From positions 1 to 32,865 of the forward strand of contig DASXLH010000269.1 of NCBI GenBank assembly GCA_036496335.1: 32,865 bases of DNA. The letters run 5' to 3'. This document shows, piece after piece, positions 16,461 to 28,555 of this stretch. The notes beneath the pieces were generated by a model. The model had not been told where the DNA came from. It searched no databases and saw only the letters and a list, made by a program, of their open reading frames with translations. This DNA is from Acidimicrobiales bacterium (GTDB taxonomy: Bacteria; Actinomycetota; Acidimicrobiia; Acidimicrobiales; CADCSY01). Both the position numbers and the translations under genes were made by a program. Within the stretch, counting starts at the first letter, position 1. Every line of letters begins with the position of its first letter.

Positions 16461-17867
16461 TCAATGAGCATGGAAGGGAAGGCCGGCGGCGGCCAGCGCC
16501 GTCTCGCGGGTGGCCTCGGAGAGCGACGGATGGGCGTGCACGACATCGGCCACCTCCTCGGCGAGCGCGCCCCAGGCGGTGGCCAGGCCGAGCTCGCCGA
16601 TCAGCTCGGTGGCCGAGGGCCCCACCAGGTGGGCGCCGACGATGGTGCCGTCGTTGAGGGTCACCAGCTTGACGTGACCGCCCGCTCTCTCGATGAGGGC
16701 CCGGGCGTTGCCCGCCAGGGTCAGCTTGGTGGTGCGCACCTCGTTGCCCAGCGCCCGCGCCTCCGGCTCGGTGAGCCCCACGGAGGCGACCTCGGGCGTG
16801 CAGTAGGTGACGCGGGGGATCTGGCGGTGGTCGACGGGTCGGGGTGACAGGCCGGCGACGGCGTCGGCCACGGCGAAGCCCTCGGCGAAGGCGGCATGGG
16901 CCAGGGCCAGGGTCGGGAGGACGTCGCCCACGGCCCACAGCCCGTCGACGGCCGTACGGCCGAGCCCATCGACGAGAACCCGGCCGCGGTCGTCGAGGAC
17001 GCCGAGCGCCTCGAGACCGATGCCGGCGGTCCGGGGGCGGCGGCCCACCGCCACGAGGACCTGGTCGACGTCGAGGGACGTCCCGTCGACGAGCTCGACC
17101 CGCACACCGTCGTCGTCGGCCTTGGCCCCGGCGAGACCGACGCCGGTGCGCACGTCGATGCCCCGGGCTCGGAAGGCTCGGGCCAGCGCCGCCGACGAGT
17201 CGGGATCCTCCAGGGGCAGGAGCCGGTCCAGCGCCTCGACCAGGGTCACCTCGGCGCCGAGCGAGCGCCACAGCGACGCGAACTCCACCCCGACCGCGCC
17301 GCCACCCACGACCACCGCCCGTCTCGGCACCCGCTCCAGTCGCAGCGCGTCGTCGGAGGTGAGGATGCGGGTCCCATCGGCCGGGGCGATGGACAGGTCG
17401 ATCGGGGCCGAGCCGGTCGCCACCACGACGTGGCGGGCCTGGATGGTGGTGGGAGCGCCGCCGGTCGTGGGCTCCCCGGGCTCCCCGGTCGGCGTGACCT
17501 CGACCGTGCCGGGGGCCGACAGCCGGCCCCATCCCTGCACCGTCGTGATCCCGCGCGTCCTCACCAGGCCGACGAGGCCCTTGTAGAGGGTGTTCACGAC
17601 GTCGTCCCGGAAGCGACCGGCGGCGGCGACGTCGAGCCCGGGACCACCCGTGGCGAGTCCGAGCTGGCCCATCTGGGGGAGCGTGTCGGCCAGGTGGGCG
17701 ATGTGCAGCAAGGCCTTCGAGGGGATGCAGCCGCGATGCAGGCAGGTGCCGCCGACGAGGTCGGCCTCGACCATCGTCACCGTCAGGCCCCGGGCGGCGC
17801 CCCGCAGGGCGGTGGCGTACCCGCCCGGTCCGCCGCCGAGCACGACGATGTCGACCGGGTCGGTCAT
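16461..17867 (-). CDS. lpd: Dihydrolipoyl dehydrogenase (E3)
   Basis: 468 aa. It has GGGPGGY FAD binding, the redox-active GGTCLHRGCIPSK and the C-terminal HAHPSLSE. Its start overlaps the E2 stop (ATGA at 17864-17867). Confidence 0.92.
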   Translation of the reverse strand: MTDPVDIVVLGGGPGGYATALRGAARGLTVTMVEADLVGGTCLHRGCIPSKALLHIAHLADTLPQMGQLGLATGGPGLDVAAAGRFRDDVVNTLYKGLVGLVRTRGITTVQGWGRLSAPGTVEVTPTGEPGEPTTGGAPTTIQARHVVVATGSAPIDLSIAPADGTRILTSDDALRLERVPRRAVVVGGGAVGVEFASLWRSLGAEVTLVEALDRLLPLEDPDSSAALARAFRARGIDVRTGVGLAGAKADDDGVRVELVDGTSLDVDQVLVAVGRRPRTAGIGLEALGVLDDRGRVLVDGLGRTAVDGLWAVGDVLPTLALAHAAFAEGFAVADAVAGLSPRPVDHRQIPRVTYCTPEVASVGLTEPEARALGNEVRTTKLTLAGNARALIERAGGHVKLVTLNDGTIVGAHLVGPSATELIGELGLATAWGALAEEVADVVHAHPSLSEATRETALAAAGLPFHAH

Positions 17868-19240
17868 GCGTCGAGCAGGGCGAGCTCGGGGGCTTCGACG
17901 AGGTCGCGCAGCCGGCTCAGCAACCCTCCGGCGTCGGCGCCGTCGCCGACGCGATGGTCGAAGGCCAGCGTGAGCGTGGAGGTGGGCCTGGCCACGACCA
18001 CCCCGTCCACCACGTACGGCCGCGGCTTGATCGACCCGACGCCGAGGATGGCCGCCTCGGGATGGTTGATGACGGGGATCCCCTCGTCGAGGCCCAGGGC
18101 GCCGAAGTTGGAGACGGTGATGGTCGAGCCGGTGAGCTCGCCCGGCGTGATCGTGTGGTCGCGGGCGGCCGCCGACAGGCGGGCGATCTCACTCGACAGG
18201 TCGAGCGTCGAACGCCCGTCGGCGTCCCGCACCACGGTGACCAGGAGGCCCCGGTCGGTGGCGGTACCGATGCCGAGGTGGACCGCGCTGTGGTACCGGA
18301 TGGCCGGCCCGGACTCGTCGTAGCTGGCGTTGAGGCCGGGGACGGCGACGAGCGCCTGGACGAACAGCCGGCAGAGCAGCGAGAAGGGGGTGACGGGCGT
18401 GCCCAGGCCCCGACGGTCGGCGGCCGAGTTGAGCGCGGCTCGCACCTCGAGCAGGCGGGTGCAGTCGACGGTGACGCTGCAGGTGGCGTCCGGGATCCGG
18501 GTGCGGGACGTGCTCATGTGCTCGGCCACCCGGGCGCGGACCCCGGTGACGGGCACCACCGTCGTGCCGGCGCTGTCGGTCCCGGCGATCGACGCCACGA
18601 CCCCACCCGGGGCGGGGGTGTCGGCGGCAGCGCGGACGTCGGCCCGGGTCACGATGCCATCGGGTCCGCGGCCCGGGGCCAGGGACTGCAGGTCGACCCC
18701 CAGGTCGCGGGCCAGCTTGCGCACTGGAGGAGCGGCCAGGGCCCGGCCGACACCGGCGGTCGCGCCGGAGGCGACACCTGGGGGTGTGTCGCCCACGGTC
18801 GCGACCGCCGTGACCGGGTCGGTGGCGACGGTGGGGTCGGCGCTCGCGACCGGGGCCTCGGGTGACGGCGCAGACCCCCGCCGCCGGCGGCGGCTGCGGT
18901 CGATCGACTCGTCGTGGCCGTACCCCACCAGGGTCGGCTCGCGGGTGCCCGAGGCCGCCGGTGCCGCGGCTGTGCCTTCCGGTGCATCTGCGGTGCTGAG
19001 AGCGATCCGGGCGAGCAGGGAGCCGACCTTGAGGGTCTCGTTGGCGGCGCCGCCGAGGGCGACCACGGCGCCGGCGTAGGGGGAGGGCACCTCGACCTCG
19101 GCCTTGGCCGTCTCCACCGTGCAGAGCACCTGGTTGAGGGCGACGGTGTCGCCGGGCGCGACGTGCCACTCCACCACCGTCGCCTCCTCGAGGCCCTCGC
19201 CCAGGTCGGGCACGAGGAAGTCCCGCAGCTCCTCAGCCAT
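17864..19240 (-). CDS. bkdC: Dihydrolipoamide acyltransferase E2 of the branched-chain 2-oxoacid dehydrogenase complex
   Basis: 458 aa. It has the lipoyl domain (LPDLGEGL...VETAKAEVEVPSP), a subunit-binding domain (PPVRKLARDLGVDL) and the catalytic DHRVGDGA. Confidence 0.9.
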   Translation of the reverse strand: MAEELRDFLVPDLGEGLEEATVVEWHVAPGDTVALNQVLCTVETAKAEVEVPSPYAGAVVALGGAANETLKVGSLLARIALSTADAPEGTAAAPAASGTREPTLVGYGHDESIDRSRRRRRGSAPSPEAPVASADPTVATDPVTAVATVGDTPPGVASGATAGVGRALAAPPVRKLARDLGVDLQSLAPGRGPDGIVTRADVRAAADTPAPGGVVASIAGTDSAGTTVVPVTGVRARVAEHMSTSRTRIPDATCSVTVDCTRLLEVRAALNSAADRRGLGTPVTPFSLLCRLFVQALVAVPGLNASYDESGPAIRYHSAVHLGIGTATDRGLLVTVVRDADGRSTLDLSSEIARLSAAARDHTITPGELTGSTITVSNFGALGLDEGIPVINHPEAAILGVGSIKPRPYVVDGVVVARPTSTLTLAFDHRVGDGADAGGLLSRLRDLVEAPELALLDA

Positions 19241-19379
19241 GACCCCGGCCTTCAGCCATGTTCCCGGCCTTCAGCCATGTTCCCGGCCTTCAGCCATGTT
19301 CCCGGCCTTCAGCCATGTTCCCGGCTTTCTCAGCTCTGCTCCCGGCTTCCTCAGCTCTGCTCCCGGCTTTCTCAGCCAT
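19241..19379 (-). repeat. Tandem repeat array (4 x 19 bp + 3 x 21 bp) filling the E1beta-E2 junction
   Basis: The minus strand reads 3 x 21 bp, ATGGCTGAGAAAGCCGGGAGC / AGAGCTGAGGAAGCCGGGAGC / AGAGCTGAGAAAGCCGGGAAC. These are followed by 3 x ATGGCTGAAGGCCGGGAAC and 1 x ATGGCTGAAGGCCGGGGTC, directly abutting the E2 start ATGGCTGAGGAG. The first unit contains the E1beta stop (19372-19374). Confidence 0.95.
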
Positions 19380-20385
19380 GGTCGTAGCCCAGCGACCGCT
19401 CGACGGTGTCGAGGAGCCGGTCGACGCCCGGCAGCCAGGTCGACTCGAGCCGAGCCGGGGGATAGGGCGTGTCGAAACCGGTGGCCCGCAGCACCGGGGC
19501 CTCGAGATTGAAGAACAGCTCCTCCTGCACCCGGGCCGCGATCTCCGCCCCCATGCCGAGGGTGCGAGGCCCTTCGTGGAAGACGATGCAGCGGCCGGTG
19601 CGCACGACCGACTCGGCGATGGTCTCGAAGTCGAGGGGCACGAGGCTGCGGAGGTCGATGATCTCGAGGGACCAGCCCTCGTCGGCGGCGGCCACCTCGG
19701 CGGCCTCGAGGGCCGTCCCGACCAGCCCCCCGTAGGTCACCACGGTGGCGGTCTCGCCCGCCCGGCGGACGACGGCCTTGCCGATGGGCTCGCGTCGGGC
19801 TCCCCGGTCGACCATCTCCTTGGCCCAGTAGCGGCGCTTCGGTTCGAGGAAGAGCACCGGATCGTCCGACTCGATCGAGTCGAGCAGCAGGGAGTAGGCG
19901 TCGGCGGCGCCGGACGGCACGACCACCTTGAGCCCGGCGGTGTGGACCCAGTAGGACTCGGTCGACTCGGAGTGGTGCTCAGGCGAGCCGATCCCGCCGA
20001 AGGAGGGCACCCGGACGGTAACCGGCATGGAAAGCAGCCCCCGACTGCGGCTCCGGTACTTGGCCAGGTGGGTGGCGATCTGGTCGAACGCCGGGTAGGT
20101 GAAGCCGTCGAACTGGATCTCGGGCACCGGCCGGAACCCCCGCAACGCCATGCCCACGGCCGAGCCGATGATCGACGACTCGGCCAGCGGGGTGTCGAAG
20201 CAGCGCTGGGGCCCGAAGCGGTCCCACAGGCCCTCGGTCACGCGGAACACCCCGCCCTGACGGGCGACGTCCTCCCCGAACACCACCACCCGGTCGTCGG
20301 CCTCCATGGCGTCGGCCAGCGCGGCGTTGATGGCCTGCACCATCGTCAGCTCCTGCGCCTCTCCCACGGCGGCGGTGGGTGCCAT
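19372..20385 (-). CDS. bkdB: Branched-chain 2-oxoacid dehydrogenase E1 beta subunit
   Basis: The start is at ATG 20385, 1 nt after the E1alpha TGA; the track ORF extends further upstream over E1alpha. The sequence LTMVQAINAALADAMEADDRVVVFGEDV... is typical E1beta. Confidence 0.9.
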   Translation of the reverse strand: MAPTAAVGEAQELTMVQAINAALADAMEADDRVVVFGEDVARQGGVFRVTEGLWDRFGPQRCFDTPLAESSIIGSAVGMALRGFRPVPEIQFDGFTYPAFDQIATHLAKYRSRSRGLLSMPVTVRVPSFGGIGSPEHHSESTESYWVHTAGLKVVVPSGAADAYSLLLDSIESDDPVLFLEPKRRYWAKEMVDRGARREPIGKAVVRRAGETATVVTYGGLVGTALEAAEVAAADEGWSLEIIDLRSLVPLDFETIAESVVRTGRCIVFHEGPRTLGMGAEIAARVQEELFFNLEAPVLRATGFDTPYPPARLESTWLPGVDRLLDTVERSLGYDHG

Positions 20386-20386
20386 G

Positions 20387-21466
20387 TCAGCCGGCCCGGT
20401 CGATCTCGGCTGCCAGCTCGGCCCGCTGGGCCCGGAGCTCGGCGGTGGGCTCGGTGAACACGTGGTCGAACAGCTCGAGCGGCGACGGGTCGGGGGCATC
20501 GAACACAGCCGCCCGCAGACCGGTCCGCAGGACCGCGGCCTTGGCCCGGGCCTCGTCCTCGAGCGAGTCGTCCCAGGTCCCGAGATGGCCGAGGTAGGCC
20601 CGGCACCGGGCGATCGGGTCACGGGCGAGCCACACGTCGACCTCGGCCTGGGTCCGGTAGCGGGTGGGGTCGTCGGAGGTGGTGTGCGGTCCGAGCCGGT
20701 AGGTGACGGCCTCGATCAGGGTGGGACCCTCGCCGGCCCGGGCCCGGGCGGCGGCCTGCTCCACCACCGCCATGCAGGCGAGGATGTCGTTGCCGTCCAC
20801 CCGGACGCCCGGCATCCCGTAGCCCACGCCCTTGTGGGCGATCGACGGGGCGGCCATCTGGTCGGCCAGCGGGGTCGAGATGGCCCACTGGTTGTTCTGC
20901 ACGTAGAAGAGGCAGGGCGCCTTGCGGACGGCCGCCAGGTTGAGGGCCTCGTGCACGTCACCCTCGCTGGTGGCGCCGTCGCCGACGAAGGCGACGGTCA
21001 CGCCGCCGTCACCGAGCCAGGTCGATGCCATGGCGGCGCCAACGGCGTGCAGCGCCTGGGTCCCGATCGGGATCGACATGGGGGCGACGGCCCGTTCGAT
21101 GAGCCCGAGACCGCCGTGCCAGGCACCCCGCCACATCAGCCCGATGCCACCGGGGTCGATCCCGCGGTGCAGGAAGGCGCCGAGCTCCCGGTACTGGGGG
21201 AACAGCCAGTCGGTGTCGCGCAGCGCCGCCGCGCAGCCGACCTGGGCGGCTTCCTGCCCCCGGCACGACGGGAAGAGGGCGAGCTGGCCCTGGCGTTGGA
21301 GGTTGACGAACTCCTCGTCGAGCTCCCGCGTGACGACCATGGTCTCGTACAGGGCCGGCAACTGATCGACCAGATGGGCGACCTCGTGGGCGCGGTCCGG
21401 ATGGGGAGTCCCGTCCTCGGCGATGAGTTGCACCAGCTCCAGGCCTTCGGCGACGAGCAGGTCCAC
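20387..21466 (-). CDS. bkdA: Branched-chain 2-oxoacid dehydrogenase E1 alpha subunit (TPP-dependent)
   Basis: The TPP motif is VAFVGDGATSEGDVHEALN...NNQWAIS, followed by YRLGPHTTSDDP. I prefer GTG 21466, 9 nt after GGAGG. The 41 codons up to the track start (GTG 21589) are AT-richer with atypical codon usage and look non-coding. The alternative end is 21589. Confidence 0.85.
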   Translation of the reverse strand: MDLLVAEGLELVQLIAEDGTPHPDRAHEVAHLVDQLPALYETMVVTRELDEEFVNLQRQGQLALFPSCRGQEAAQVGCAAALRDTDWLFPQYRELGAFLHRGIDPGGIGLMWRGAWHGGLGLIERAVAPMSIPIGTQALHAVGAAMASTWLGDGGVTVAFVGDGATSEGDVHEALNLAAVRKAPCLFYVQNNQWAISTPLADQMAAPSIAHKGVGYGMPGVRVDGNDILACMAVVEQAAARARAGEGPTLIEAVTYRLGPHTTSDDPTRYRTQAEVDVWLARDPIARCRAYLGHLGTWDDSLEDEARAKAAVLRTGLRAAVFDAPDPSPLELFDHVFTEPTAELRAQRAELAAEIDRAG

Positions 21467-21574
21467 GGGCAACCACCTCCGGGTCGATTCCTGCCCCGAT
21501 TGTGAAGGAACAACGGTGATCTCGCCAGCACTCTGAAGATGATTCTGTGATCCCGACGCATGCCGCTGATCATG

Positions 21575-21590
21575 TGTGTCTGACGTCACG
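21575..21590. promoter_or_regulatory. Candidate CRP/GlxR-like site TGTGT-N6-TCACG containing the palindrome TGACGTCA, in the bkd/lrp divergent region
   Basis: It matches 8 of 10 positions of the TGTGA-N6-TCACA consensus. The perfect 8-bp palindrome TGACGTCA lies at 21581-21588. The site sits in the only clearly AT-richer stretch of the window. This rests on sequence resemblance only. Confidence 0.25.
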
Positions 21591-26213: not shown

Positions 26214-28307
26214 GTGCGTACAGTCCCCCCGGTGGACCGGTCGAACCTAGCGCGCCTCCTCTCACCCGCCTCGATCGCCGTCGTCGGCGCCAGCGAGAAC
26301 CTCGGGATGTCCAACAACGCCGTGCTCCCCATGCTCGACGCAGGGCGGTCGGTGCACCTCGTCAACCCGAACCGCGACACCCTCTACGGCCAGGCGACCC
26401 ACAAGAGCCTCACCGATGTCGGTGAGCCGGTCGACGCCGTGCTGTCCCTCGTCAGCGCCGAGCGGTCGATCGGCGTGATCTCCGAAGCCGTGGCCCTCGG
26501 CTGCGGGGGCGTGGTCGTGGCGGCCGGCGGCTTCGCCGAGCTGGGCGACGAGGGCCGCGCCCTGCAGGCCCGGTTGGTGGAGGCGGCGGGCGACCAGCTG
26601 GCCATCGTGGGACCCAACTGCAGCGGCTTCATGAACGTGACGACGGGCGCCAACCTCTTCACCGGCGGGCGCATCACGCTGCGGCCCGGTGGCGTCGCGG
26701 TCATCTCCCAGAGCGGCTTCCTGCTCCGCAGCTGCCTGGCCGCGGGCCAGCAGCGCCAGCTCGCCTTCGGCGTGGCGGTGTCGTCGGGCAACGAGGCCGT
26801 GTGCGGCCTGGCCGATTACATCGCCCACCTGGCCGACGATCCGGCCACCCGGGTGATCTGCCTCGTCATCGAGAAGATCCGCGAGGCGCAGCCCTTCTTC
26901 GAGGCGGTGCGGGTGGCCCGACTGGCCGGCAAGGCGGTCGTCGCCCTCAAGCTGGGCCGCACCGAGCGGTCGCGCGACATCATGCGCTCGCACACGGGGG
27001 CGATCGCCAACGAGAGCTGGGTGTACGACCTCGTGCTGCGCCAGGCCGGCGTCGTGACCGCCACCGACATCGACGATCTGCTCGACAAGGCCACGCTGCT
27101 GGCCCAGCTCCCGCCCGAGCAGTGGCGTCCCATCCGCAACGTGGCCGTGATGGCCTCGTCGGGCGGCGTGGCCGGCATCGCCGCCGATACGGGGGTCGAG
27201 GAGGGCGTCGAGCTCCCGAGCCTCGAGGCCCTGGAGGCCTGGGTGCGGGAGCGGATCCCGGGCGAGGACGGCAGCCTGAACCCGCTCGACCTGACCGGCT
27301 TCGTGATGCGCGACCGTGAGCTGCTCACGGAGATGTTCACCGGCTACGCCGAAGCCGACGACGTCGACGCCCTGATCCTGTGCTGGTGGGCGGCCGAGGG
27401 CGACGAGGGTTGGGCCAAGACCCTGCTCGACCCCTTCGCCGACGTGGCCGAGAAGGTGTCGGTACCGCTGATCGTCAGCCCCGTCGAGGCCACCTCCATC
27501 GGTGGCTGGACCGACCAGTTCCGCACCCGAGGAGTGTCCTTCTCCCGCGGTCTGCGCTCCACCTACCGGGCCGTCAAGGCGCTCGACGCGGTGGCCTCGG
27601 CGGCGGCGCCGGCGACGCGGCCTTCGGTGGCACCCGACGATGTCGCGCCGCCGACCCTCCTCGACAGCGAGGCCGGCCGCATCGCCTCCTTCGCCGACTC
27701 GATGGCGATGCTCGAGGCCGCCGGCGTCCCGGTTGCGCCCTATGTGGTGCTGGTCGACGGCGTGGTCGACGATCCGGCCATCGCCGCCCTGGGCGACCGG
27801 CTCGTGGTCAAGCTGGCCGACGTACCCCACCGCACCGAGCTGGGGGCCGTCCGGTTGGGCGTGGCTCCGGCCGAGGTGGCGGGCGCGGTGGCCGAGCTCC
27901 GGGCCATCGCCTCGTCCCACGGCGTGCCGGCCACGATCGCGGTCCAGAAGATGGTGGCCGGGCACGGCGAGGCGTTCATCGGGCTCCAGGCCCGCACCGA
28001 CCTCGGTCCCGTGCTGCTCTTCGGTCGCGGCGGGGTGCTGCTCGAGGTCGCCCCTCGCGTCGACGGGCGGCTGCTGCCGCTCGTCGACGGCGCTGCCACG
28101 TCGGTGGTCGAGGCCGTCGCCGGCGACGTGGCCGGCCTCCGGGGCCAGAAGGCCTGGGACAGCGATCCCCTGGTCGGCGCGGTCGAGGGGGTCGCCCGCC
28201 TCTGGCAGTCGACGGGTTCGTGGCTCGGCTCCGCCGACCTCAACCCACTCGTCGTCACCGTCGACGGCGTGGTCGCCGTCGACGCCCTCCTCGTTGCTTA
28301 CGACTGA
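26214..28307 (+). CDS. ADP-forming acyl-CoA synthetase (acetate-CoA ligase family; CoA-binding + ligase-CoA + ATP-grasp domains)
   Basis: LLSPASIAVVGAS, IVGPNCSGFMN and SGNEA are present, with a C-terminal ATP-grasp segment. The start is GTG 26214 or GTG 26232. The first about 360 codons of the 1056-aa track ORF overlap the opposite-strand genes and are rejected. Confidence 0.8.
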   Translation: MRTVPPVDRSNLARLLSPASIAVVGASENLGMSNNAVLPMLDAGRSVHLVNPNRDTLYGQATHKSLTDVGEPVDAVLSLVSAERSIGVISEAVALGCGGVVVAAGGFAELGDEGRALQARLVEAAGDQLAIVGPNCSGFMNVTTGANLFTGGRITLRPGGVAVISQSGFLLRSCLAAGQQRQLAFGVAVSSGNEAVCGLADYIAHLADDPATRVICLVIEKIREAQPFFEAVRVARLAGKAVVALKLGRTERSRDIMRSHTGAIANESWVYDLVLRQAGVVTATDIDDLLDKATLLAQLPPEQWRPIRNVAVMASSGGVAGIAADTGVEEGVELPSLEALEAWVRERIPGEDGSLNPLDLTGFVMRDRELLTEMFTGYAEADDVDALILCWWAAEGDEGWAKTLLDPFADVAEKVSVPLIVSPVEATSIGGWTDQFRTRGVSFSRGLRSTYRAVKALDAVASAAAPATRPSVAPDDVAPPTLLDSEAGRIASFADSMAMLEAAGVPVAPYVVLVDGVVDDPAIAALGDRLVVKLADVPHRTELGAVRLGVAPAEVAGAVAELRAIASSHGVPATIAVQKMVAGHGEAFIGLQARTDLGPVLLFGRGGVLLEVAPRVDGRLLPLVDGAATSVVEAVAGDVAGLRGQKAWDSDPLVGAVEGVARLWQSTGSWLGSADLNPLVVTVDGVVAVDALLVAYD

Positions 28308-28330
28308 GCCCGAGTCGAACCACCCACCGA

Positions 28331-28505
28331 CCGAACCGGGTGCGGGCGAGGTACGGAGCGCGCTTCACCGGCACCCAGAACGCATCCTGAACCGAACCGG
28401 GTGCCACTGAAGTACCCAGCGCGCTCCACCGGCACCCAGAAACGAGTCCCGATCCGAACCGGGTGCCACTGAAGTACGGAGCGCGCTTCAGCGGCACCCA
28501 GAACG
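28331..28505 (+). repeat. Three tandem ~61-bp units, each an imperfect hairpin (REP-like array)
   Basis: The units start with CCGAACCGGG at 28331, 28392 and 28454 (periods 61 and 62 bp, not multiples of 3). Each ends with GGCACCCAGA(A)ACG. The best stem is in unit 3, where GGGTGCCACTGAAG (28461-28474) pairs with CTTCAGCGGCACCC (28486-28499) at 13 of 14 positions around an 11-nt loop. Confidence 0.9.
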
Positions 28506-28555
28506 AGGTGGCTGCCTTCGCCGAGCGCGGGGCCGCCCGTCTAACGTCCGGCGCC

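Follow-up and report, generated by a model that had tools for sequence, protein, structure and literature searches.

Mycobacterial interspersed repetitive units (MIRUs; Supply et al. 1997) are tandem repeats of 46-101 bp found at 41 loci of M. tuberculosis (H37Rv) (PMC3914561). They lie within operons, carry small open reading frames (ORFs) that overlap the stop and start codons of the flanking genes, are apparently mobile and inserted at start codons, and are coupled at -4 (ATGA) (PMC12548453). The delivery of ribosomes by short ORFs, those of MIRUs included, is a recognised idea (PMC12548453). We analysed a contig of 32,865 bp (hereafter the window, meaning the whole of this stretch) from a metagenome-assembled genome (MAG) labelled Acidimicrobiales bacterium, an uncultured, soil-type actinobacterium. 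In a 2-oxoacid dehydrogenase operon of the window, a tandem repeat array lies between the genes for E1beta and E2 and carries a chain of small ORFs. The array is a locally made analogue of MIRUs and not a new kind of system.

Like MIRUs, the array is located between co-directional operon genes, on the same strand and along the direction of translation. The ends of its small ORFs overlap the upstream stop and the downstream start, so that coupling can survive, and its copy number is polymorphic between strains. Unlike MIRUs, it is made of units of 19 and 21 bp, it couples at -8 through the octamer ATGGCTGA instead of at -4, and its host is an Acidimicrobiales MAG and not Mycobacterium. Its units are copies of the downstream gene's own 5' end, whereas MIRUs are scattered and appear mobile.

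The array was also compared with other described systems. Each junction of the chain has the standard ATGNNTGA geometry of termination-reinitiation coupling (Huber et al. 2019, 2023), the gene products belong to a single complex as its subunits, and the neighbouring junctions are +1 and -4. Known cases, however, are single hops between two real genes, whereas the array would have up to five serial hops through peptide-less relay ORFs, the number of hops varying between strains. In leader-ORF delivery and in the synthetic bicistronic design, the stop of a short ORF likewise overlaps a start, delivers a ribosome and melts structure, the peptide being irrelevant. Those are single ORFs, engineered or natural, with a ribosome-binding site of their own, whereas the ORFs of the array are chained and made by tandem duplication and would be fed by the upstream gene. 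The 21-nt units resemble in-frame N-terminal tail repeats as well, since they are 7-codon repeats of the E2 N-terminus and are part of E2 in a relative (P0005, described below); in the window, in contrast, the 19-nt derivative severs the repeats from E2 and makes them separate, putative relay ORFs. The array does not have the character of a phase-variable contingency locus: it lies outside both genes, and any copy number keeps both the E2 frame and the chain. No description of junction-derived relay repeats was found when a literature collection was searched for tandem repeats together with translational coupling, an absence that is weak evidence.

The array and its chain of small reading frames

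The minus-strand reading and a script parse gave an array of 139 bp (19379-19241) composed of three 21-bp units and four 19-bp units (Table 1). The E2 start, ATGGCTGAGGAG, follows directly at 19240. Tandem Repeats Finder reported a period of 19 with 5.1 copies, 96% matches and a score of 173 for the 19-bp array, and a period of 21 with 2.8 copies and a score of 109 for the 21-bp array. When the window was searched with the unit patterns at up to 3 mismatches, four matches to the 19-bp and three to the 21-bp pattern were obtained, all of them in the array, against 0.01 expected from shuffles. The script parse also showed that the octamer ATGGCTGA joins the stop of each mini-ORF to the start of the next one along the array. 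These results bear out both the unit structure and the chain of mini-ORFs described in an earlier note on this DNA. That note had placed 139 bp between the two genes; the figure is correct as the length of the array but not as the gap, which is 131 nt from the E1beta stop to the E2 ATG, because the first octamer is the original junction itself. Translation of the array as part of a flanking gene was considered and ruled out in the window, where TGA closes all three frames across the 19-bp units.

Table 1. Positions and composition of the array, its mini-ORFs, the operon genes and two analogues (positions refer to the window unless another sequence is named)
Feature	Positions	Strand	Description
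Original -8 stop/start octamer	19372..19379	-	ATGGCTGA; E1beta stop and ATG opening mini-ORF 1
Three 21-bp units	19317..19379	-	ATGGCTGAGAAAGCCGGGAGC, AGAGCTGAGGAAGCCGGGAGC, AGAGCTGAGAAAGCCGGGAAC; codons MAEKAGS, RAEEAGS, RAEKAGN
Four 19-bp units	19241..19316	-	ATGGCTGAAGGCCGGGAAC three times, then ATGGCTGAAGGCCGGGGTC (last ends GGTC)
Mini-ORF 1	19290..19379	-	29 codons and stop, MAEKAGSRAEEAGSRAEKAGNMAEGREHG; opens in the E1beta octamer, ends in the octamer of the second 19-bp unit
Mini-ORF 2	19271..19297	-	MAEGREHG and stop
Mini-ORF 3	19252..19278	-	MAEGREHG and stop
Mini-ORF 4	19233..19259	-	MAEGRGHG and stop; stop (19235-19233) inside the octamer carrying the E2 start
E1alpha	20387..21589	-	Longest ORF, true start probably downstream of 21589; Pfam E1_dh 2.7e-80
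E1beta	19372..20385	-	337 aa; Pfam Transket_pyr and Transketolase_C; stop 19374-19372
E2 (dihydrolipoamide acyltransferase)	17864..19240	-	458 aa, begins MAEELRDFLVPDLGEG; Pfam Biotin_lipoyl, E3_binding, 2-oxoacid_dh
E3 (dihydrolipoyl dehydrogenase)	16461..17867	-	Pfam; NCBIfam TIGR01350, 440 bits (cutoff 408.8)
L027, Novosphingobium sp. NZ_OZ245867.1	1511-1556 of reverse-complemented locus	-	19-bp units ATGGCTGAAGAGACACGTC; FliR/FlhB
L074, Actinomycetota MAG JBKPHM010000012.1	1560-1619	+	Four extra 13-bp units ATGGCTGAG[C/T]C[A/C]G; glyoxalase-like/CoA-transferase

The chain follows from simple arithmetic. In ATGGCTGA, the TGA starts 5 nt after the ATG. In a repeat of period P, the ATG of a unit is therefore in frame with the TGA of the next unit if P + 5 is divisible by 3, that is, if P = 1 mod 3. 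Since 19 = 1 mod 3, the ORF chain holds at any copy number, as it would for any unit of such a length that contains ATGnnTGA. In the 21-bp units (21 = 0 mod 3), the first ATG reads straight through, and a period of 2 mod 3 would join only every second unit. This arithmetic explains how the repeat can vary freely without uncoupling E2. The 77- and 53-bp MIRUs of senX3-regX3 are 2 mod 3, as a -4 relay requires. We discounted the 1 mod 3 periods of this and similar arrays as weak evidence of selection, since very few arrays are involved and a relay also arises at 2 mod 3 when an even number of units is inserted.

No Rfam family matched in the array, and no promoter-like or terminator-like site was found in it. 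An internal promoter, a terminator or a known RNA element in the array thus has no support. A 4-bp hairpin is possible in each unit, and the whole array folds somewhat better than shuffles (z = -2.15).

Alleles, relatives and proposed origin of the units

Further contigs of the same population carry the array in different lengths. L001, a contig assembled from a different metagenome sample, encodes an E2 identical to that of the window and has all seven units, with a single substitution in unit 1. In three contigs from further samples of this series, three 21-bp units are followed by two 19-bp units (L009) or by a single one (L007 and L008). Across these five contigs, the window included, the copy number of the 19-bp unit is 1, 2 or 4, while the 21-bp block has three copies in all five; the variation is confined to the 19-bp unit. 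The flanks of the five contigs are 99.0-100% identical. Differences at only 0-1% of flanking sites mean that the array changes more quickly than point mutations build up. Two partial E2 contigs (L010 and L130, from P0122 and P0123) end short of the array and are not included in this count. The array shows head-to-tail, near-identical units, a variable copy number and conserved flanks, as a variable-number tandem repeat (VNTR) arising by slipped-strand mispairing does. The prediction in the earlier note that the locus would be a VNTR was confirmed by the alleles, in which the 19-bp unit is present once, twice or four times.

The population was also sought elsewhere. In a metagenome contig collection, an array-independent 29-mer of the E2 5' end had no match, and that collection is therefore without this population. 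A degenerate two-unit pattern gave three matches in the metagenome scan, which were rejected because all of them are unrelated Ala/Lys-rich proteins. Searched against proteins, the 61-aa repeat together with the beginning of the lipoyl domain gave nothing at E <= 0.001, being too short a query for the database.

Outside the population, the nearest E2 proteins have 69-72% identity overall and 73-81% over the core. Three related lineages have the bare 8-nt overlap ATGG[C/T]TGA and no repeat, with ATGGCTGA in L006 and L131 and ATGGTTGA in L002-L005; in these relatives, the ATG of the octamer is the E2 start. The presence of the bare octamer in three lineages indicates that the -8 overlap is the ancestral state.

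A fourth related lineage is represented by P0005, an E2 homologue from JGI sample 3300056388 with 74% identity over the E2 core. The protein starts MAEEAGD-RAEEAGD-RAEEAGD-RAEEAGD-RAEEVRDFLVPDLGEG, and its residues 1-35 hold four copies of a 7-residue repeat, (M/R)AEEAGD, and then RAEEVRD. The 7-codon repeat is here an N-terminal extension in frame with E2, and its last copy runs on as ...RAEEVRDFL. In place of E2's own Met there is Arg, which units 2 and 3 of the window likewise have (AGA), and the upstream ATG is therefore the only ATG available to the P0005 E2. P0005 thus speaks for the use, in this clade, of the ATG that overlaps the E1beta stop as a functional start codon. Unrelated repeated tails were seen in other E2 proteins (PESPA/PESPT in P0032 and PEPTA/PEPTL in P0034), as were long variable tails.

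Comparison of the units points to their source. When the 21-nt unit is aligned, with short indels, to the 5'-terminal 21 nt of E2, 19 of 21 positions agree, and the best alignment of the third 21-nt unit with the 19-nt unit has a 2-nt gap and three mismatches. These alignments, and the same repeat found in frame in P0005, uphold the earlier note's claim that the unit derives from the gene junction. Its description of the array as inserted was not sustained, the array being a local duplication instead of an inserted interspersed element. In both the window and P0005, the distal units carry Ala-Gly where E2's own copy has Leu-Arg or Val-Arg. The comparison tentatively suggests that the two arrays are homologous and not independent, although the closest relative, P0002, is without an array.

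The simplest history that we infer has three steps. First, the first 21 nt of E2 (7 codons from the ATG) would have been duplicated in tandem and in frame, giving a repeated N-terminal tail. Such a duplication would be tolerated because the N-terminal tail of E2 is unconstrained, and this state would still be present in a relative, P0005. Second, a loss of 2 nt would have produced the 19-nt unit and broken the frame, so that the upstream copies became a separate small ORF and the E2 start shifted to the last ATG. Third, the 19-nt unit would have expanded and contracted by replication slippage. The 21-nt units would then be the older, diverged part of the array.

Possible passage of ribosomes to E2 and alternative readings

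The five consecutive -8 overlaps of the window, between co-directional genes, lie within the range of -8 to +6 nt given for termination-reinitiation (PMC10666635). Overlaps of -8 are the third most common coupled geometry and are standard for reinitiation (PMC10666635). Reinitiation is reduced by 40-80% at +14 nt and nearly abolished at +38 nt, and coupling needs no more than the last 15 nt of the upstream gene (PMC10666635). Because of this loss with distance, E2 would lose its coupling across an untranslated gap of 131 nt, whereas ribosomes could be handed along a chain of -8 overlaps.

We consider the array to be a locus-derived VNTR that grew from the -8 overlap of E1beta and E2, and a serial reinitiation relay to E2 seems to us its most likely role, although our confidence is only somewhat greater than our doubt. 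Every allele would present a chain of -8 overlaps, from E1beta to the 29-codon ORF, through n-1 8-codon ORFs, to E2, where n is the number of 19-bp units. Ribosomes ending E1beta would reinitiate stepwise, five times in the window, two or three times in the shorter alleles and once in the relatives. They would thereby reach the E2 start, for which no Shine-Dalgarno sequence is suitably placed and which is predicted to lie buried within structure. The mini-ORF peptides themselves would have no function, and the repeat would be tolerated because coupling is kept. A higher copy number probably lowers the output of E2 (and E3) relative to E1 stepwise, as a consequence and not as an established function; with lossy hops, a tuning of stoichiometry would follow.

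The initiation signals were examined by calculation. Complementarity to the anti-Shine-Dalgarno (anti-SD) sequence before the unit ATGs is -6.1 to -6.7 kcal/mol, which lies within the background (mean -4.5, standard deviation 2.8). The match before the E2 ATG, -8.3 kcal/mol, is within the background too, 12% of background 20-mers scoring as well. All these matches end 0-3 nt from the ATG and are too close for a normal Shine-Dalgarno sequence. The starts of E1beta and E3 showed no anti-SD complementarity. For every allele, the predicted cost of opening the E2 start is 14-16 kcal/mol, and it shows no tendency to rise or fall as the copy number changes.

It is worth noting that several facts weigh against the relay. 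The anti-SD sequence used is a generic one and not that of this genome, and the best complementarity of the series precedes the E2 ATG, so that E2 may to some extent be initiated independently. Few ribosomes may get through five reinitiation steps in succession. The ORF chain is a built-in consequence of the unit length and the octamer and does not in itself indicate selection. The identity of the 19-bp copies marks them as young, and the array could be a transient, mildly harmful slippage product. P0002, the closest relative (81% core identity), is without an array. P0005 was read as protein only, so that an overlap with E1beta is a supposition in that lineage, where E2 might also begin at a GTG codon for Val33. 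The alleles, moreover, come from short-read metagenome assemblies, in which a collapse by the assembler is possible, if unlikely.

Much of this agrees with another reading, which we regard as unlikely but as the most serious of the alternatives. The array would be a neutral or slightly harmful slippage product with incidental mini-ORFs, E2 would be started independently by free 30S subunits, and the array would persist only because little damage is done. Automatic relay geometry, recent 19-bp copies, closest relatives without an array and a best anti-SD match before the E2 ATG would all be expected in that case, as would the confinement of the units to one population. That match, however, has the wrong spacing, since it ends at the ATG, and is unexceptional among background 20-mers, and the E2 start is predicted to be buried. 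All other operon junctions (+1 and -4) are of the coupled type. The start at the upstream ATG appears to be in use in the clade, being the only ATG for E2 in P0005. Furthermore, the presence of the 21-bp part in all five contigs, and of the 7-codon repeat in a lineage with 74% core identity, means that this part is not short-lived.

Beyond the relay itself, a stronger reading would join a selected rheostat with a general, unnamed class of junction-derived relay repeats in which the overlap type sets the allowed period. We give this little credence; the rule in it would allow periods of 1 mod 3 where the overlap is -8 and of 2 mod 3 where it is -4 or -1. The rheostat taken by itself, in which slippage of the 19-bp unit would be selected as a heritable and reversible switch of the E2(+E3):E1 ratio through the number of hops, appears improbable. 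Three alleles (1, 2 and 4 copies) do occur among strains with flanks 0.1-1% apart, the chain is intact at any copy number, and reinitiation loses ribosomes and depends on distance (PMC10666635). Variation of this kind would be expected of any perfect tandem repeat, however, the allele series comes from only five contigs, and a difference in fitness between the alleles, or a tracking of environments by them, would be conjecture.

The array could in principle belong to a dispersed, MIRU-like family of mobile repeats and have been inserted at the E2 start codon; its architecture fits the published description of MIRUs (PMC12548453) and its copy number is polymorphic. No second copy of the 19- or 21-bp units, however, was found in the 32.9-kb window or in 134 fetched loci (about 33 kb of this genome being covered). 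The unit almost reproduces the opening 21 nt of E2, P0005 has the same repeat within its E2 protein, and 19 and 21 bp are outside the MIRU range of 46-101 bp (PMC3914561). Membership in such a family is therefore very improbable. Of the likeness to MIRUs drawn in the earlier note, the architecture remains (PMC12548453); membership in the MIRUs does not, on grounds of unit length and taxon, and no second locus was found in the sequences searched.

It is hardly credible that the repeat was expanded or collapsed by a short-read assembler: although the contigs are metagenome assemblies and such repeats do break them (L001 ends 24 nt upstream of the array, and the P0005 contig begins 3 nt before the ATG of its repeat), the 4-copy form was assembled twice from different samples, one single-nucleotide difference apart, the 1-copy form was assembled twice in contigs that differ at other sites, and the longest internally repeated stretch, about 63 nt by our own estimate, is presumably shorter than the largest k-mers usual for 150-nt reads.

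Flanking genes, similar arrays and significance

The TGA stop of E1alpha (20389-20387) lies 1 nt before the ATG of E1beta, giving the junction TGAcATG (+1 nt), and E2 and E3 overlap by ATGA (-4). E1beta ends in ...GGC TAC GAC CAT GGC TGA (...GYDHG-TGA), inside the first ATGGCTGA octamer. The same 337-aa E1beta gene call was found in L008 and L009, and an exact look-up of the window E1beta found no record. A carboxyltransferase follows in the window; at the same operon in relatives, an acyl-CoA dehydrogenase is also present and an AsnC-type regulator lies upstream. This neighbourhood points to branched-chain or leucine catabolism. E1alpha, on the other hand, passes the cutoff of NCBIfam TIGR03181, the equivalog of pyruvate dehydrogenase E1alpha, with 425.9 bits (cutoff 411.35). 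On the substrate of the complex, the sequence evidence thus diverges. Of the earlier designation as a branched-chain 2-oxoacid dehydrogenase operon, the 2-oxoacid dehydrogenase part stands, and the branched-chain part is an interpretation of the gene context.

To look for analogous arrays, genomes were scanned, one for each species, for three ATGGCTGA octamers spaced by 8-25 nt, and at least 119 loci (L011-L129) were obtained. Among the matches listed, most are (ATGGCTG)n heptamer microsatellites or in-frame coding repeats. The heptamers, which frequently alternate with ATGGCTA and similar variants, are present in numerous phyla and can occupy several loci of one genome, for example on four contigs each in Planctomycetota JBBQSO01 and Bacteroidota JBATDG01. 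Where long open frames flank a heptamer array, it was considered as an analogue and rejected, since the flanks are junk-like.

Among the same matches, only two are clean analogues, L027 and L074 (Table 1); L012, L030, L035 and L101 are partial ones. In L027, the first octamer holds the end of FliR (Bac_export_1, ...SAKHG-TGA) and the last one the start of FlhB (Bac_export_2). In L074, none of the five octamers has a change, while three of the five remaining positions are variable. At both loci, the upstream stop lies in the first octamer, the downstream start in the last, and the unit copies the 5' end of the downstream gene. They are independent analogues of the E1beta/E2 array. Their periods (19 and 13) are both 1 mod 3, in numbers too small to prove selection. 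In a Propionicimonas MAG (L012, 5687-5738, plus strand), 22-bp units with ATGGCTGA follow the stop of a 109-aa ORF, which looks like a helix-turn-helix regulator, and run into nothing but a 19-codon ORF; they may represent a junction array that has lost its downstream partner, or in which that partner was miscalled.

The window contains a further repeat of another kind, at 28330-28506 (plus strand), in a gap of about 250 bp between a gene like those for ADP-forming acyl-CoA synthetases (ending at 28307) and a zinc alcohol dehydrogenase-like gene. It has a 62-bp unit in 2.9 copies with 84% matches. Each unit contains an imperfect inverted repeat, CCGGGTGCC...GGCACCC, so that three tandem hairpins are predicted. 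The RNA fold is -90.4 kcal/mol (z = -3.4), and no Rfam family matched this repeat.

For annotation, the E1beta/E2 array is a warning that such arrays break assemblies and can mislead start-codon calls. The locus can serve as a strain marker for an uncultured population. Unit length modulo 3, taken against the overlap type, would be a rule predicting which junction duplications keep coupling. The array would also represent one route by which intra-operon relay-ORF repeats, known mainly as MIRUs, may arise from a gene junction without a mobile element. The main value of the finding is a natural allelic series, with 1, 2 and 4 units in the population and with zero-unit and in-frame states in relatives, in which serial reinitiation and the loss per step could be measured, and which would show how many successive reinitiation steps a bacterial ribosome can make.

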